DNA of 6,993 nt from a virus (Duplodnaviria; Heunggongvirae; Uroviricota; Caudoviricetes), in IMG/VR virus record IMGVR_UViG_2675903469_000006, positions 1 to 6,993 of that record, one strand, 5' to 3'. The position numbers and the translations under genes were made by a program. The notes below the pieces were generated by a model, which was not told where the DNA came from, made no database searches, and saw only the letters and a list, made by a program, of their open reading frames with translations. Below are positions 1-6,993 of the stretch, in pieces (position 1 is the stretch's first letter; each line of letters starts with the position of its first letter).

Positions 1-142
1 CCCCTATTAGCGGTTACCAGCGCCCCACCAGACCCGGTGACATCACCCCCCGGATCATGGACGACTGGGGGCAGTAATCATGCCGGGTCTGGCTGGCTAA
101 CACCCCATTATAAGGGGTACGAATAAAGTAACGGGGCGGGAT

Positions 143-340
143 ATGTATCAGATGGAAAAAATATCAACAGGCATTGCCTACGGCACCTCCGCCGGCAGTG
201 CCGGCTACTGGTTTTTGCAGTGGTTGGATCAGGTCAGTCCATCACAGTGGGCTGCGATTGGTGTGCTGGGAAGTCTGCTTCTGGGGCTTCTGACTTATCT
301 GACGAATCTGTATTTCAAAATAAGAGAAGATAAGCGTAAG
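143..340 (+). pseudogene. S: Class II holin (phage 21 S21-like pinholin), N-terminal fragment truncated by IS2 insertion
   Basis: ATG at 143 with a second in-frame ATG at 152 ([10 protein letters not shown]...). The translation [63 protein letters not shown] closely matches the phage 21 S21 pinholin as I recall it. The reading frame runs straight into the IS2 terminal inverted repeat at 341, and the track ORF 143..427 is the resulting chimeric read-through. Confidence 0.85.
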
Positions 341-381
341 TGGATTTGCCCCTATATTTCCAGACATCTGTTATCACTTAA
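341..381. repeat. IS2 terminal inverted repeat (right end, IRR)
   Basis: Imperfect inverted repeat partner of 1631..1671, seen directly in the sequence. Confidence 0.8.
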
Positions 382-1257
382 CCCATTACAAGCCCGCTGC
401 CGCAGATATTCCCGTGGCGAGCGATAACCCAGCGCACTATGCGGATGCCATTCGTTATAATGCTCGAACGCCTCTGCAAGGTTCTTTGCTGCCGTTAACC
501 CGTCTGGTTTGGGCATGATACTGATGTAGTCACGCTTTATCGTTTTCACGAAGCTCTCTGCTATTCCGTTACTCTCCGGACTCCGCACCGCCGTGTTCTT
601 CGGTTCAAGTCCCAACATCCGGGCGAACTGGCGTGTTTCATTAGCCCGGTAGCATGAACCATTATCCGTCAGCCACTCCACTGGAGACGACGGAAGATCG
701 TTGCCGAAGCGGCGTTCCACCGCTCCCAGCATGACGTCCTGTACTGTTTCACTGTTGAAGCCGCCGGTAGTCACCGCCCAGTGCAGTGCCTCACGATCAC
801 AGCAGTCCAGCGCGAACGTGACACGCAGTCTCTCTCCGTTATCACAGCAGAACTCGAACCCGTCAGAGCACCATCGCTGATTGCTTTCTTTCACGGCCAC
901 TCTGCCTGTATGTGCCCGTTTCGATGGCGGTACAGCAGGTTTTCGCTCAAGCAACAGCGCATTCTGGCGCATGATCCGGTAAACACGTTTGGCATTGATC
1001 GCAGGCATACCATCAAGTTCTGCCTGTCTGCGAAGCAGCGCCCATACCCGACGATAACCATACGTGGGCAGCTCTCCGATAACATGGTGTATACGGAGAA
1101 GCACATCCGTATCATCAGTGTGACGACTGCGGCGGCCATCCATCCAGTCATCGGTTCGTCTGAGAATGACGTGCAACTGCGCACGCGACACCCGGAGACA
1201 ACGGCTGACTAAGCTTACTCCCCATCCCCGGGCAATAAGGGCGCGTGCGCTATCCAC
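352..1257 (-). CDS. insD: IS2 transposase OrfB (InsD), DDE integrase-like catalytic domain
   Basis: 301-aa minus-strand ORF inside the IS2 boundaries. Sequence [21 protein letters not shown]...[11 protein letters not shown]...[19 protein letters not shown] is typical of IS3-family OrfB. It overlaps OrfA in the -1 frame. Confidence 0.95.
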
Positions 1258-1580
1258 TTTTTTGCCCGTCCATATTCAACGGCTTCTTTGAGGAGTTCAT
1301 TTTCCATCGTTTTCTTGCCGAGCAGGCGCTGGAGTTCTTTAATCTGCTTCATGGCGGCAGCAAGTTCAGAGGCAGGAACAACCTGTTCTCCGGCGGCGAC
1401 AGCAGTAAGACTTCCTTCCTGGTATTGCTTACGCCAGAGAAATAACTGGCTGGCTGCTACACCATGTTGCCGGGCAACGAGGGAGACCGTCATCCCCGGT
1501 TCAAAGCTCTGCTGAACAATTGCGATCTTTTCCTGTGTGGTACGCCGTCTGCGTTTCTCCGGCCCTAAGACATCAATCAT
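1215..1580 (-). CDS. insC: IS2 transposase OrfA (InsC), helix-turn-helix DNA-binding subunit
   Basis: 121-aa [44 protein letters not shown]... The track ORF begins 15 codons earlier at 1625, but that extension lies inside the terminal inverted repeat; the internal ATG at 1578..1580 gives the canonical 121-aa product. Confidence 0.9.
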
Positions 1581-1630
1581 CTGTACTCCAATGACTAGTC
1601 TAAAAACTAGTATTAAGACTATCACTTATT

Positions 1631-1671
1631 TAAGTGATACTGGTTGTCTGGAGATTCAGGGGGCCAGTCTA
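1631..1671. repeat. IS2 terminal inverted repeat (left end, IRL)
   Basis: Reverse complement matches 341..381 with a few mismatches. Confidence 0.8.
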
Positions 1672-1672
1672 A

Positions 1673-1693
1673 NNNNNNNNNNNNNNNNNNNNN
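1673..1693. other. Assembly gap (run of 21 N)
   Basis: Twenty-one consecutive ambiguous bases immediately after the IS2 end: a scaffold join, not biological sequence. Confidence 0.99.
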
Positions 1694-1797
1694 CGATTGG
1701 TGTGCTGGGAAGTCTGCTTCTGGGGCTTCTGACTTATCTGACAAATCTGTATTTCAAAATAAGAGAAGACAAGCGTAAGGCTGCGAGAGGTGAATAA
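1694..1797 (+). pseudogene. S: Class II holin (S21-like pinholin), C-terminal fragment resuming after the gap
   Basis: In-frame translation [33 protein letters not shown] followed by a stop (TAA 1795..1797), matching the S21 C-terminus. The first 85 bp near-duplicate 256..340 with 2 mismatches. Confidence 0.8.
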
Positions 1798-2294
1798 TGT
1801 CGCCATCATTACGCAAGGCTGTTGCAGCTGCTATTGGTGGTGGGGCTGTTGCTATAGCATCTGTGTTAATCACTGGCCCAGGTGGTAACGATGGTCTGGA
1901 AGGTGTCAGCTACATACCATACAAAGATATCATTGGTGTATGGACTGTATGTCACGGACACACCGGAAAAGACATCATGCTCGGTAAAACGTATACCGAA
2001 GCAGAATGCAAAGCCCTCCTGAATAAAGACCTTGCCACTGTCGCCAGACAAATTAACCCGTACATCAAAGTCGATATACCGGAAACAACGCGCGGCGCTC
2101 TTTACTCGTTCGTTTACAACGTGGGCGCTGGCAATTTCAGAACATCGACGCTTCTTCGCAAAATAAACCAGGGCGATATCAAAGGCGCATGTGACCAGCT
2201 ACGTCGCTGGACATATGCTGGCGGTAAGCAATGGAAAGGGCTGATGACCCGTCGTGAGATTGAGCGTGAAGTCTGTTTGTGGGGGCAGCAATGA
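1797..2294 (+). CDS. R: SAR endolysin (phage 21 R21-like lysozyme, glycoside hydrolase family 24)
   Basis: 165-aa ORF whose ATG overlaps the holin stop (TAATG). The Gly/Ala-rich N-terminus [30 protein letters not shown] is typical of a signal-anchor-release domain, followed by lysozyme-like sequence ([11 protein letters not shown]...[12 protein letters not shown]) very similar to R21 as recalled. Confidence 0.93.
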
Positions 2295-2755
2295 GCAGAG
2301 TCACCGCGATTATCTCCGCTCTGGTTATCTGCATCATCGTCTGCCTGTCATGGGCTGTTAATCATTACCGTGATAACGCCATTACCTACAAAGAGCAGCG
2401 CGACAAAAACGCAAGAGAACTGAAGCTGGCGAACGCAACCATTACTGACATGCAGCAGAGACAGCGTGATGTTAATGCACTCGATGCTAAATACACGAAG
2501 GAGTTAGCTGATGCGAAAGCTGAAAATGAAACTCTGCGCGCTGATGTTGCCGCTGGTCGTCGTCGGTTGCACATCAAAGCAGTCTGTCAGTCAGTGCGTG
2601 AAGCCACCACCGCCTCCGGCGTGGATAATGCAACCAGCCCCCGACTGGCAGACACCGCTGAACGGGATTATTTCACCCTCAGAGAGCGGCTGATGACGAT
2701 GCAGATGCAACTGGAAGGGGCACAGGAGTATATCCGCACTCAGTGCATTAAGTAG
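2291..2755 (+). CDS. Rz: Rz inner-membrane spanin (i-spanin)
   Basis: The ATG at 2291 overlaps the endolysin stop (ATGA). The product [60 protein letters not shown]... has an N-terminal transmembrane helix followed by coiled-coil sequence and is near-identical to lambda Rz as recalled. The track's GTG start at 2279 is less likely. Confidence 0.9.
2511..2693 (+). CDS. Rz1: Rz1 outer-membrane lipoprotein spanin (o-spanin), embedded in the +1 frame of Rz
   Basis: 60-aa ORF lying wholly inside Rz in another frame: [60 protein letters not shown]. It has a lipobox (LVVVGC) and a proline-rich stretch, matching lambda Rz1 as recalled. Confidence 0.85.
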
Positions 2756-2797
2756 CCTTTTTATCGTGGTAAACATTTCGCAGGGTATGAGGTATTT

Positions 2798-3148
2798 ATG
2801 CCATCACTAATCCCACGTGCCTGCCGTAAGCGTGGATGTGCAGGTACAACCACAGACAGTTCGGGTTACTGCGATAAACATCGCGGTGAAGGCTGGGTGC
2901 AGCACCAGCGCGGACTGAGCCGCCACCAGCGTGGCTATGGCTCAAAATGGACGGTGATTCGTGCCCGTATTCTGAAGCGCGATAAAGGTCTGTGTCAGTT
3001 GTGTCTGCGTGTCGGTGTGGTGAGCGAGGCGAAAACCGTCGACCACATCATCCCGAAAGCGCATGGCGGAACAGACGCAGACAGCAACCTGCAGAGTCTG
3101 TGCTGGCCCTGCCATAAAGCGAAAACAGCGCGCGAACGAATCCGGTGA
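2798..3148 (+). CDS. HNH endonuclease (phage packaging-associated; HK97 gp74-like position)
   Basis: 116-aa ORF with GAGG (2789..2792) 5 nt upstream of the ATG. It carries HNH and zinc-binding signatures (C-x2-C ... DHIIPKAHGG ... N ... CWPCH) and sits immediately upstream of the terminase small subunit. Confidence 0.85.
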   Translation: MPSLIPRACRKRGCAGTTTDSSGYCDKHRGEGWVQHQRGLSRHQRGYGSKWTVIRARILKRDKGLCQLCLRVGVVSEAKTVDHIIPKAHGGTDADSNLQSLCWPCHKAKTARERIR

Positions 3149-3166
3149 TAATTATTCTCACTTGTA

Positions 3167-3230
3167 GGGAGGGGCGGGGCAAATCCCTGTGACCTGACGT
3201 CTTCCGGACTGCCCGCCCCATCGTTTTTTT
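3167..3230. other. GC-rich inverted repeat followed by a T7 run in the HNH-terS intergenic region; candidate cos/packaging site or terminator-like hairpin
   Basis: GGGGCGGGGCA (3171..3181) pairs with TGCCCGCCCC (3210..3219) with one bulge, across a loop of about 28 nt, followed by ATCG and TTTTTTT (3224..3230). It lies exactly where HK97-like phages place cos. Any function is inference. Confidence 0.4.
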
Positions 3231-3269
3231 ATACCCGCGAAAAATGAAATTTAACCAGGAGTGCCGCAT

Positions 3270-3764
3270 ATGGCTGGAACGGCGGGGCGTTCCGGGCGTC
3301 GCCCCAAGCCAACGGCGCGCAAGGCGCTGGCCGGAAACCCCGGCAAGCGAGCCCTGAACAAAGATGAACCTGTTTTTACGCCCATCAAAGGTGTTGAGCC
3401 ACCAGAGTGGTTCGCTGAAGAAGATCTCCCTCTCGCCACGATCATGTGGCAACTGACAACCAAAGAACTCTGCGGTCAGGGCCTGCTGTGCGTGACTGAC
3501 CTGGCGGTACTTGAGCGGTGGTGCGTGGCCTATGAGTTCTGGCGACGTGCCGTGAAAAATATTGCCATACAGGGCAACACCATCACCGGTGCAATGGGCG
3601 GCAGGGTCAAAAATCCGGAGCTGACCGCCAAAAAAGAACAGGAGTCCGAGATGAGCAGCACGGGGGCAATGCTCGGACTCGACCCCAGCAGCCGCCAGCG
3701 TCTGATTGGCCTGGCGGGGCAGAAGAAAGCCACTAACCCGTTTCTGAAAATTATCGAATCATGA
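3270..3764 (+). CDS. Terminase small subunit (P27 family / Terminase_4-like)
   Basis: AGGAG (3257..3261) lies 8 nt upstream of ATG 3270; the track's GTG at 3261 is too close to that site. [34 protein letters not shown]... contains the GNPGKR motif typical of P27-family small terminases. The stop overlaps the terL start (ATGA). Confidence 0.85.
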
Positions 3765-5494
3765 GCCGGAAATCTTACCCCAACGTAAATGCTGCAAATC
3801 AGTATGCCCGGGATGTCGTGCGCGGAAAGATTGTTGCCTGCCAGTTTGTGATTCAGGCCTGCCAGCGCCATCTTGATGACCTGATGGCGGAAAAAAGTAA
3901 GTCGTTTCGTTACCGCTTCGACAAGGACCTGGCTGAACGGGCCGCGAAATTTATTCAGCTGTTGCCGCACACCAAGGGGGAGTGGGCATTCAAACGGATG
4001 CCCATCACGCTGGAGCCGTGGCAGCTATTTGTGATCTGCTGTGCGTTTGGCTGGGTCAATAAAGGCACCCGGTTGCGCCGCTTCCGGGAGGTGTACACCG
4101 AAATCCCCCGTAAGAACGGCAAATCAGCAATCTCTGCCGGTGTTGCCCTGTATTGTTTTGCCTGTGATAACGAGTTTGGCGCGGAAGTGTATTCCGGTGC
4201 CACGACAGAGAAACAGGCGTGGGAAGTCTTTCGCCCGGCGCGACTGATGTGTAAACGCACACCCATGCTGACGGAAGCGTTCGGGATTGAGGTTAACGCC
4301 TCAAACATGAACCGTCCGGAGGATGGCGCGCGGTTTGAACCGCTGATCGGCAACCCAGGTGATGGTTCATCACCCCACTGTGCCGTGGTTGATGAATATC
4401 ACGAGCATGCCACCGATGCGCTTTATACCACAATGCTTACCGGGATGGGGGCGCGACGTCAGCCACTGATGTGGGCCATCACCACCGCCGGGTACAACAT
4501 TGAGGGGCCGTGCTACGACAAGCGGCGGGAAGTCATCGAGATGCTCAACGGCTCGGTGCCTAACGATGAACTGTTCGGGATCATCTATACCGTTGATGAA
4601 GGTGACGACTGGACCGGCCCGCAGGTGCTGGAAAAAGCCAATCCAAATATTGGCGTGTCGGTTTATCGCGAATTTTTGTTAAGTCAGCAGCAGCGTGCGA
4701 AAAATAACGCCCGTCTGGCAAACGTCTTTAAAACAAAACACCTCAATATCTGGGTGTCGGCGCGTTCGGCGTATTTCAACTTGGTGAGCTGGCAGAGCTG
4801 CGAGGATAAATCACTGACCCTTGAGCAGTTCGAGGGGCAGCCGTGCATTCTGGCCTTTGACCTGGCGCGTAAGCTGGATATGAACAGCATGGCGCGACTT
4901 TATACCCGCGAGATTGACGGTAAAACGCATTACTACAGTGTGGCCCCGCGTTTCTGGGTACCGTATGACACGGTGTACAGCGTCGAGAAAAATGAAGATC
5001 GACGGACAGCCGAACGCTTTCAGAAATGGGTGGAAATGGGCGTTCTGACCGTTACCGATGGTGCGGAGGTGGATTATCGCTACATCCTCGAGGAGGCCAA
5101 AGCGGCGAACAAAATCAGCCCGGTCAGTGAGTCACCCATCGACCCCTTCGGGGCGACCGGGTTGTCACATGACCTTGCTGATGAAGACCTGAATCCCGTC
5201 ACTATCGTCCAGAACTTCACCAATATGTCCGATCCGATGAAAGAGCTGGAAGCAGCGATTGAATCGGGACGTTTTCATCATGACGGCAATCCCATCATGA
5301 CCTGGTGTATCGGCAACGTGGTCGGCAAAAACATGCCGGGTAACGATGATGTGGTGAAACCCGTCAAAGAGCAGGCGGAAAACAAAATCGATGGTGCAGT
5401 TGCGCTGATTATGGCGGTTGGCAGAGCCATGCTGTACGAGAAAGAAGACACGCTGTCTGACCACATTGAGTCCTACGGGATCCGCTCGCTTTAA
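3761..5494 (+). CDS. Terminase large subunit (HK97-like, Terminase_1 family; ATPase plus nuclease)
   Basis: 577-aa ORF translationally coupled to terS, with a Walker A-like motif (IPRKNGKS) and a long conserved C-terminal region. It is the largest ORF in the window and sits in the canonical position. Confidence 0.93.
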
Positions 5495-5505
5495 CTGAGG
5501 TAATT

Positions 5506-5688
5506 ATGATCATGCTGATTCTCGCGCCTCTGGTGGGCGTGCTGGGTGCGCTTTTGCTGGCGTATGGTGCCTGGCTGATTTATCCCCCGGCGGGTTTTGT
5601 TGTTGCCGGGGCGCTGTGCCTGTTCTGGTCGTGGCTGGTGGCGCGATATCTCGACCGTACACGGCAGTCTGTCGGCGGAGGTAAATAG
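5506..5688 (+). CDS. Small hypothetical membrane protein (about 60 aa, two predicted transmembrane helices)
   Basis: GAGG (5497..5500) lies 5 nt upstream of ATG 5506. [60 protein letters not shown] is highly hydrophobic with a basic C-terminus. Its stop TAG overlaps the GTG of the following portal frame (TAGTG). No family assignment possible from sequence alone. Confidence 0.5.
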
Positions 5689-6844
5689 TGTTCTTTTCGG
5701 GATTATTTCAACGAAAAAGCGATGTGCCGGTGACCACGCCAGCAGAACTGCTGATGCTATCGGGCTGTCATACGACACCTATACCGGAAAGCGGATCAGT
5801 AGCCAGCGGGCCATGCGCCTGACGGCGGTCTATTCTTGCGTCAGGGTGCTGGCAGAGTCTGTTGGTATGCTGCCCTGCAGTCTCTACAAAATCAGCGGTA
5901 CCCTGAAAACACGGGCGGTGGATGAACGACTGCATAAGTTGGTTTCGGCAAAACCTAATGGCTACATGACACCGCAGGAATTCTGGGAGCTGGTTATTGT
6001 CTGCCTGTGTCTACGGGGGAATTTTTACGCCTACAAGGTAAAGGCACTGGGAGAAGTGGTGGAGCTTCTTCCGATAGATCCGGGCTGTGTGGAACCGAAG
6101 CTGAACAGCCAGTGGCAGCCGGTTTATCAGGTGACGTTTCCGGATGGTTCCGTGGATGTGTTGACCCAGAATGAAATCTGGCATGTGCGCACCCTGACGC
6201 TGGATGGACTTGTCGGGCTGAATCCCATTGCGTATGCGCGTGAGGCCATTTCACTGGCAGCGGCAACCGAGGAGCACGGTGCCAGGTTGTTTAGTAATGG
6301 TGCGGTGACATCCGGTGTGTTGCGTACGGAACAAAAGCTCACGCCGGATGCTTACGAGCGTCTGAAGAAAGATTTTGAGGAGTGTCACACGGGGCTTGGC
6401 AATGCTCACCGCCCGATGATTCTGGAAATGGGGCTGGACTGGAAGTCGATGGCGCTGAACGCCGAGGACAGTCAGTTCCTGGAAACCCGCAAGTTTCAGC
6501 TGGAAGAAATCTGTCGTCTGTTCCGGGTGCCGTTGCACATGGTGCAGAACACCGATCGCGCCACCTTCAACAATATCGAAGAGCTGGGGCTGGGATTTAT
6601 CAACTATTCACTGGTGCCGTATCTGACCCGCATCGAACAGCGGATCAACACCGGACTGGTACGAAAAAGTAAGCAGGGCGTTTATTACGCCAAATTTAAC
6701 GCCGGGGCGTTACTGCGCGGGGATATGAAGTCCCGTTTTGAAGCCTACGCCACCGGGATCAACTGGGGAATTTACTCTTCCAATGACTGCCGCGACCTGG
6801 AAGATATGAATCCGCGTCCCGGTGGTGTAATGCCGATCAGTTAA
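5688..6844 (+). CDS. Portal protein (HK97 family), apparently frameshifted near the 5' end and 3'-truncated by IS4
   Basis: The long frame (track 5597..6844) carries a portal-like core (AMRLTAVYSCVRVLAESVGMLP ... through the C-terminus). The only convincing start is the GTG at 5688, with GGAGG at 5677..5681, but it is in a different frame: MFFSGLFQRKSDVPVTTPAEL reads on to a stop at 5820..5822. The conserved frame has no plausible start before M at 5813. The last five codons (VMPIS, then stop) are encoded by the putative IS4 end. Confidence 0.8.
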
Positions 6845-6876
6845 GGATCAGTTGACCGATCCAGTGGCTGTGTAAG

Positions 6877-6912
6877 AATCCGGAAACGCTCACTTGTTTC
6901 CGGATTTTTTTA
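6877..6912 (+). terminator. Hairpin plus T-run (rho-independent terminator-like) just upstream of the IS4 transposase start
   Basis: AATCCGGAAAC (6877..6887), loop GCTCACTT, then GTTTCCGGATT (6896..6906) running into TTTTTTT. It may shield the transposase from read-through transcription. Confidence 0.45.
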
Positions 6913-6993
6913 TGCACATTGGACAGGCTCTTGATCTGGTATCCCGTTACGATTCTCTGCGTAACCCACTGACTTCTCTGGGGGATTACCTCG
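6912..6993 (+). CDS. insG: IS4 transposase (InsG-like), N-terminal 27 codons only; runs off the window
   Basis: ATG at 6912; translation MHIGQALDLVSRYDSLRNPLTSLGDYL. Identification is by recalled similarity and needs a database check. Confidence 0.6.
   Translation, partial: MHIGQALDLVSRYDSLRNPLTSLGDYL

Follow-up and report, generated by a model that had tools for sequence, protein, structure and literature searches.

Insertion sequence IS4 interrupts an HK97-type portal gene in the window (the whole 6,993-nt stretch of viral DNA analysed here), cutting a decayed lambdoid prophage of Shigella sonnei at a site marked by the 12-bp target GTCCCGGTGGTG. It is very likely, in our judgement, that IS4 transposed into the portal gene and that inversions between this and other IS4 copies later exchanged the flank on its right. 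The prophage was defective then and is defective now, its portal gene being frameshifted and the remnant being bounded by IS elements. The feature itself is ordinary and already known from annotations and the literature; the locus has been public in S. sonnei since strain Ss046, IS4-flanked inversions have been published, and the finding carries little weight as a discovery. What is added here is the exact break with its 12-bp duplication, an extra frameshift, the exchange of the far side by IS4-to-IS4 recombination, and a warning about a scaffold join.

Over 1,500 complete E. coli genomes carry an element, annotated as 'IS4-like element IS4 family transposase / insG', to which positions 6826–6993 are 100% identical (E = 7e-82). 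The match is far beyond chance, and the proposal of the earlier note that IS4 truncates the 3′ end of the portal gene is upheld. The first base of the element (TAATGCC...) was set from an annotated copy, L002, by its inverted repeats and 11-bp duplication, and this delimitation together with the comparison to intact portals places the start of IS4 at 6828 rather than at 6826, as had been supposed, so that the break lies between 6827 and 6828. At this point intact portal genes read CCCGGTGGTG/ATGTCTATC, which can also be read as ...GGTGGTG/ATGTCTATC, and the window reads CCCGGTGGTG/TAATGCCGATCAG, with the slash marking the break. Five E. coli portal matches (H16–H20) reach 11 nt past the junction; this apparent extension was rejected as a chance likeness of GGTAATGTCTATC and GGTGTAATGCCGATC. 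The left terminal inverted repeat agrees at 16 of 18 positions with the reverse complement of the IS4 right end TAATGCCAGTCAGTTAAG, which lies outside the window and was read in L002 and L006.

A complete IS4 of 1426 bp stands at the identical left junction in L006 (13068–14493), and the full-length element fills this site in the S. sonnei chromosomes L006–L008; where IS2, with its own 5-bp duplication, sits inside IS4, the element measures 2762 bp. The transposase frame had been described as beginning 84 bp beyond the end of the portal frame; its IS4 N-terminus is confirmed and the distance holds when counted from the first IS4 base to the insG ATG, whereas the portal stop codon is only 67 nt away. 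In L002 (PGAP) insG is given a start 18 nt upstream, at a TTG corresponding to window position 6894 (annotation 2069..3415, IS4 start 2003). Full-length InsG has 442 aa, and the copy in L006 matches PF13006 Nterm_IS4 (3e-33) and PF01609 DDE_Tnp_1 (8e-32); the 27-aa fragment in the window, too short by itself, gave no Pfam match. The element is IS4 of the IS4 family, a cut-and-paste DDE insertion sequence of 1426 bp, and nothing in the element itself differs from known copies. Coordinates are collected in Table 1.

Table 1. Coordinates of the portal pseudogene, the IS4 left end and their parts in the window
Feature	Position	Strand	Remarks
HK97-family portal pseudogene, 5′ 380 codons	5688..6827	+	Start GTG 5688
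1-nt deletion (missing G), portal frameshift at codon ~21	5749..5750	+	Single gap versus L001 and L013
Left copy of the 12-bp IS4 target-site duplication GTCCCGGTGGTG	6816..6827	+	Same 12-mer in L034 at 4197–4208
IS4 left end, nt 1–166 of 1426	6828..6993	+	Window stops within the element
IS4 left terminal inverted repeat TAATGCCGATCAGTTAAG	6828..6845	+	Imperfect, 18 bp
Sigma-70 promoter-like site TTGACC, 16-nt spacer, TG-AAGAAT	6852..6879	+	Inside IS4
IS4-internal hairpin, 15 pairs, 6-nt loop	6874..6909	+	6874–6888 pairs with 6895–6909
insG, first 27 codons (MHIGQALDLVSRYDSLRNPLTSLGDYL)	6912..6992	+	IS4 transposase N-terminus

The portal gene, whose GTG start overlaps the stop codon of an upstream 60-aa YmfR-like gene, matches Pfam PF04860 Phage_portal with E = 3e-107 (358.8 bits versus a cut-off of 39.1; profile positions 2–321 of 321). 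Residues 1–21 are encoded in frame 3 and the remainder in frame 2, and a tblastn comparison with the intact 413-aa E. coli portal gives the same division (residues 1–21 in frame 3, residues 5–380 in frame 2, 87.8% identity). At the frameshift site intact relatives have one more base, and the frameshift sequence GAACTGCTGATGC is found in all seven S. sonnei-type copies checked (L006, L010, L012 and L031–L034). The portal is thus doubly broken, by IS4 and by a frameshift independent of it; its reading frame is not intact and the gene is a pseudogene.

At its 3′ end the portal frame runs CCC GGT GGT GTA ATG CCG ATC AGT TAA (PGGVMPIS, stop at 6842–6844). The earlier note had seen this frame end as ...NPRPGGVMPIS in what looked like an insertion sequence end, and the VMPIS codons and the stop are indeed supplied by the IS4 left repeat, the cut falling after codon 380 of 409–413. 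It could be argued that the portal ends here naturally and that IS4 merely lies downstream of a complete gene, since the Phage_portal domain is fully kept, the cut being 7 residues past its end, and the lost tail is of low complexity. However, all eight intact homologues (409–413 aa) run 29–33 residues beyond PGG, as D/N-VYLTPMNMTT followed by the low-complexity stretch, and none ends at this position. The HK97 portal structure 8cez, which matches the intact homologue over residues 27–385 (E = 6e-52), aligns as far as 5 residues past the break and no further, the stop codon and last five residues of the window copy are IS4 sequence, and a displaced 3′ end follows the target duplication in contig L034, described below. 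The chance that the gene ends here naturally is practically nil, and we take this reading as already refuted.

The earlier note expected that a portal missing its C-terminus would block head assembly. The 33 residues are lost, but with the Phage_portal domain complete a block arising from this loss alone is not certain, the grounds for it in the protein sequence being weak. Intact relatives have the prohead protease start 79 nt past the break point, so that IS4 severs the late operon. The severed operon and the frameshift matter more than the missing residues, and arguments about function should draw on the locus as a whole.

The strong hairpin and T-run that had been noticed ahead of the transposase frame are borne out. 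The RNA fold has a stability of −20.6 kcal/mol (z = −4.1), equalled by none of 200 shuffles, and its 3′ arm runs into seven T at 6905–6911 that end at the insG ATG; a simple consensus terminator scanner made no call on the hairpin despite this strong fold. Hairpin, T-run and ATG together are the leader of IS4 itself, present in every IS4 copy, and were not made by the junction. The promoter-like site has 9 of 12 consensus matches and an extended −10 TG (one site versus 0.4 expected in the consensus scan), with a −10 element overlapping the hairpin's 5′ arm. RNA initiated at this site would begin inside the loop and be unable to form the stem; the stem would form in RNA arriving from the portal gene, which would terminate at the T-run, occlude the start of insG, or both. 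It is conceivable from this arrangement that the site functions as a promoter and that the hairpin has an insulating role. The scheme resembles that of IS10 and IS50, for which protection against outside transcription is known.

The window stops inside IS4. The right flank of the element was read at 19 places on megabase-scale S. sonnei contigs, most of them complete chromosomes. All 19 have an identical left junction, and beyond IS4 each continues into core chromosome in one of two forms. In configuration A, IS4 with IS2 inside is followed by bamE-recN-nadK-grpE; in configuration B, an intact 1426-bp IS4 is followed by raiA-pheL-pheA-tyrA-aroF. Nine of these loci (L003–L011) were read at base level, where the flank begins GCTCATTGAGC... 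on the bamE side or CAGCCCTTGAGC... on the raiA side, the IS4 right end is not followed by a target duplication, and portal 3′ sequence is missing within 6–8 kb; at the ten further places, gene calls reveal no context other than these two. Each of the two flanks belongs to the core backbone, found in 5,426 of 5,426 E. coli genomes at the yfjF/bamE and bamD/raiA intergenic sites. The lack of a duplication and the core flanks indicate that IS4 now joins a prophage remnant to the chromosome and is not a simple insertion. The earlier note had looked beyond the element for an 11–13 bp duplication and the displaced portal 3′ end; because the far side has been exchanged, the 1.5-kb extension it suggested would wrongly have seemed to refute a correct call. 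When an IS element stands at the edge of a window, a simple insertion should not be assumed, as the far side is often exchanged in IS-rich Shigella genomes.

Both the duplication and the displaced 3′ end are, however, present on one IMG/VR contig. A scan of IMG/VR for the IS4 right end followed by 0–2 nt and TCCCGGTGGTG matched L034 alone, which reads ...CTGACTGGCATTA/GTCCCGGTGGTG/ATGTCTATCTCACACCG... and is the only sequence in which the 12-bp duplication and the continuing portal gene follow the right end of this IS4. Here the IS4 right end and the 12-mer are succeeded by the portal 3′ end and by the protease corresponding to WP_001193631.1, then by capsid, connectors, tail tube and tape measure. 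The join of IS4 to the portal 3′ end reads ...GGCATTA/GTCCCGGTGGTGATG. The IS4 of L034 is 100% identical to the Ss046 copy, and the sequence downstream of the duplication is 99.5% identical to the intact E. coli SC516 prophage. Related IS4 loci carry target duplications of 11–12 bp (11 bp in L002), and the range for IS4 is 11–13 bp (ISfinder). The presence on L034 of both the 12-bp duplication and the portal 3′ end indicates that IS4 first inserted by ordinary transposition.

The reciprocal junction is thus seen, within IMG/VR, on a single contig that is itself a scaffold, with one N at 2819 and a hairpin loop that is flipped (reverse-complemented) at the contig end. In the left part of L034 the site is uninterrupted by IS4, with 3 differences in 386 positions from the IS4-flanked copy; immediately to the left of the junction, 48 nt are identical between the window and intact relatives. 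The genome behind L034 probably holds a second related prophage, with the read-through reflecting a switch of assembly path, and the join of IS4, duplication and portal 3′ end is unlikely to be an artefact. The reciprocal junction pattern had 0 matches in the metagenome contig collection (exact scan, run without a control), and both the left and reciprocal junctions had 0 matches in the genome contig collection, which evidently holds no S. sonnei. Approaching the reciprocal junction in S. sonnei through protease homologues led to other prophages (P0011, P0104, P0005, P0008, P0038 and P0098). Several of these prophages served as intact references. A foreign C-terminal tail in P0038 was considered as possibly IS-encoded and rejected, there being no such IS in the loci read.

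The portal/IS4 junction is common in S. sonnei. Window positions 1694–6993 are 100% identical to S. sonnei Ss046 (CP000038.1), and the large-terminase protein has exact matches in 4,305 blocks of the assembly collection, those read being S. sonnei chromosomes that include Ss046. The junction-specific 343-aa portal fragment ending in VMPIS occurs in 1,695 collection blocks, from which it follows that public S. sonnei assemblies widely share the junction; it is absent from the complete E. coli genomes searched. The left junction, used as a positive control, was found in three IMG/VR contigs. Two IMG/VR contigs, L031 and L033, are 99.6% identical to the window with the same junction and frameshift, and this divergence hints that the insertion may be older than S. 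sonnei or that the broken prophage may have moved between lineages.

Could the junction instead be an assembly artefact, arising where a short-read contig entered an IS4 repeat that had been collapsed, with an uninterrupted portal in the organism? The window ends 166 nt into IS4, as is typical of short-read contigs, L031–L033 end similarly (43–94 nt into the element), the left end of the window has an N run and an apparent scaffold join, and L034 shows a read-through copy of the site. The same junction is nevertheless followed by a whole IS4 in finished long-read or complete chromosomes, Ss046 among them, its specific protein is indexed in many blocks, and the three substitutions in the L034 read-through copy place that copy at another locus. 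We regard an artefact as a very improbable explanation of the junction, and the interruption of the portal by IS4 as real.

The left end of the window is a different matter. The earlier note counted the truncated portal as a second independent lesion of the prophage; the frameshift also inactivates the portal, but the other lesion, an IS2 in the holin gene, is most likely a scaffold join to another locus and not a lesion of this prophage. IS2, which annotation classes as an IS3-like element of the IS2 family, occupies positions 341–1671. Positions 1–340 derive from another copy of the holin, with 2 mismatches in 208 nt; of these positions, 1–132 are unrelated to the Ss046 upstream region. Past IS2 come one base and 21 N, after which the Ss046 sequence resumes inside the holin, so that at least 86 nt of holin are found on both sides of IS2. 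The holin::IS2 junction also occurs on small draft contigs beside an IS110-family transposase. Among the 19 S. sonnei places IS2 in the holin is found at none, and an uninterrupted 68–71-aa holin lies directly upstream of the lysozyme gene at 18, with none called at L047. What is counted as a lesion in a draft scaffold can, as here, be a join made in assembly.

From the junctions and flanks described above we infer an order of events and, with it, where the reciprocal junction should lie in S. sonnei itself. In an ancestor of S. sonnei, IS4 would have transposed into a lambdoid prophage and inserted after codon 380 of the portal gene, duplicating its 12-bp target, with five IS-encoded residues replacing the last 33 of the portal. 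The late operon would have been cut in this step, and the IS4 hairpin and T-run should stop read-through transcription. Later homologous recombination with two other IS4 copies, one between yfjF and bamE and the other between bamD and raiA, would have inverted the blocks between them. The ancestral order would be portal′-IS4(c)-[portal 3′ ... tail genes ... ssrA smpB ratA yfjF]-IS4(b)-[bamE ... raiA]-IS4(a)-bamD, which is colinear with the E. coli backbone. Recombination between copies c and a would produce configuration B, and a further inversion of the raiA-bamE block would produce configuration A. The portal 3′ end and the remaining head-tail module would now be found beside another IS4, 20–45 kb away.

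Published observations on S. sonnei are in line with this history. IS4-flanked inversions of ~45 kb in all lineage 2 genomes and of 20 kb in lineage 3 have been described (PMC12795559, Table 4) and attributed to IS-mediated homologous recombination (PMC12795559), and yfjF, ratA, smpB and ssrA, together with a block of phage genes, are present and inverted in lineages 2 and 3 (PMC12795559). The two recombination steps proposed above would correspond to the published 45-kb and 20-kb differences, although the assignment of the two configurations to lineages 2 and 3 would follow gene order rather than a strain-by-strain match. The placement of the S. sonnei prophage at ssrA derives from the published gene list and from backbone colinearity only. 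An ssrA location was also considered for the intact relative SC516 and rejected, as that prophage adjoins potB. Intact relatives have a lambda-type tail that includes a 'minor tail protein L' (gpL), and this fits the published phage block being the displaced remainder of the prophage.

Alternatively, the portal IS4 may have recombined with a directly oriented IS4 at yfjF/bamE, removing the portal 3′ end, the head-tail genes and ssrA-smpB-ratA-yfjF and leaving one hybrid IS4 scar, with no displaced 3′ end in the genome. Configuration A, in which portal′-IS4-bamE lacks a duplication, is the exact product of such a deletion between direct repeats; the direct orientation of copies c and b in the inferred ancestral order would suit it, as does the absence of nearby portal 3′ sequence at L003–L011. 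Such a deletion cannot, however, yield configuration B (portal′-IS4-raiA), the genes that it would remove are listed as inverted and not as missing, the phage block included (PMC12795559), and L034 holds the reciprocal junction with intact downstream genes. We consider the deletion unlikely and favour transposition followed by inversions between IS4 copies. More tentatively, the portal IS4 might belong, as one arm, to a switch of three IS4 copies around ssrA-bamE-raiA whose successive inversions define the S. sonnei lineages, a proposal that we find possible but would not yet call probable. If such a switch is true, the invariant portal/IS4 junction could mark the species and the right flank the lineage.

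Compared with known systems, the element shares its sequence, 18-bp repeats, leader hairpin, InsG N-terminus and 1426-bp length with the IS4 (insG) of E. coli K-12 and Shigella. Its location alone, at codon 380 of a prophage portal gene, sets it apart from IS4 elsewhere, and in many S. sonnei genomes this copy carries an IS2 insertion. The cryptic prophage e14 of E. coli K-12 is likewise a decayed lambdoid prophage with the late order terminase, 60-aa YmfR-like gene and portal, the last being a pseudogene that we take to be beeE; the 60-aa gene of a related E. coli locus, L013, is annotated ymfR. e14 is nevertheless a different element at a different site. Intact E. coli prophages with an HK97-type head and a lambda-type tail, such as SC516 (portal WP_000466247.1), have an uninterrupted 413-aa portal and share the gene order HNH, P27-family small terminase, large terminase, YmfR-like gene, portal, S78 protease and capsid. 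The SC516 portal is 88% identical to the one studied here, and its 3′ end and protease are ~99% identical to the displaced part in L034. The inversions published for S. sonnei (PMC12795559) have the raiA side and the bamE side as their block ends, as do the two right flanks found here, and the gene order in L006–L008 (raiA, pheA, tyrA, aroF, yfiL, yfiR, IS, IS21) matches the published list; to that account, which gives neither the portal location of the flanking IS4 nor the 12-bp duplication, both are added here.

The portal gene, which at the end of the window is cut by the left end of IS4, also carries a 1-nt deletion (see table) that is common to all seven S. sonnei-type copies checked. Since L031 and L033, IMG/VR contigs of greater divergence, are among these copies, the frameshift is a lesion that does not depend on IS4 and that these lineages have in common. 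The late-region gene set of the window otherwise looks typical and intact, and the large terminase, at 577 aa, is equal in length to that of intact relatives.

Features located in the window and in related S. sonnei loci
Feature	Location	Strand	Remark
Second holin copy	window 133-340		2 mismatches vs holin of window prophage; fused to IS2
IS2	window 341-1671	minus	
Rz gene	window 2279-2755		embeds Rz1-like lipoprotein ORF
Rz1-like lipoprotein ORF	window 2511-2693		nested in Rz gene
HNH endonuclease gene	window 2798-3148		adjoins small terminase gene
P27-family small terminase gene	window 3261-3764		adjoins HNH endonuclease gene
YmfR-like membrane protein gene	window 5506-5688		60 aa; stop overlaps portal start
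Portal 1-nt deletion	window 5749-5750		frameshift at ~codon 21
Promoter-like site TTGACC-16-TG-AAGAAT	window 6852-6879		-10 element in 5' arm of IS4 hairpin
IS2 interrupting portal IS4	L010 14190-15520		same place in L003-L005, L009, L011; configuration A genomes

An unrelated genome (L022; GCA_003547955.1, PCJS01000012.1, 6693-8732) holds a homologous prohead protease gene, called with an N-terminal extension (243 aa); directly before it, both strands carry Mu-type baseplate and tail-fibre genes. This arrangement, together with the called extension, suggests that the L022 prophage is rearranged or circularly permuted.

The left end of the window (1..1693) looks like a scaffold join. Positions 1-132 bear no relation to the region upstream in the S. 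sonnei reference chromosome Ss046, and IS2 is followed by one base and then by 21 N (1673-1693), with Ss046 prophage sequence picking up again at 1694, within holin. A holin stretch of at least 86 nt is thus present on either side of IS2, which cannot fit the 5-bp duplication made by this element. The identical holin::IS2 junction is carried by small contigs, where it adjoins an IS110-family transposase. In genomes of configuration A, where the right side of IS4 abuts bamE-recN-nadK-grpE, the portal IS4 spans 2762 bp owing to an inserted IS2 that is 100% identical to the window copy.

Transcripts from the promoter-like site in IS4 would start within the hairpin loop and so avoid the hairpin; this predicted start suggests that the transposase gene insG may be insulated from outside transcription. 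In L034, a contig with the IS4 right end, a contig end is joined through a single N, and there (2819-2850) the IS4 hairpin has its loop reverse-complemented, reading AAGTGAGC in place of GCTCACTT. This reversed loop is an assembly artefact at the palindrome. The scaffold also has a second copy of the IS4 target site, read through and differing at 3 of 386 positions.

Both L031 (IMGVR_UViG_2734482591_000008, 7706-12789) and L033 (IMGVR_UViG_2693429622_000001, 1-4970) share with the window both the portal|IS4 junction and the frameshift, but are only 99.6% identical to it over 5 kb. Diversity in S. sonnei is low, and this divergence is above that expected within the species. The broken prophage may be older than S. 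sonnei, or a different lineage of Shigella or E. coli may carry it.
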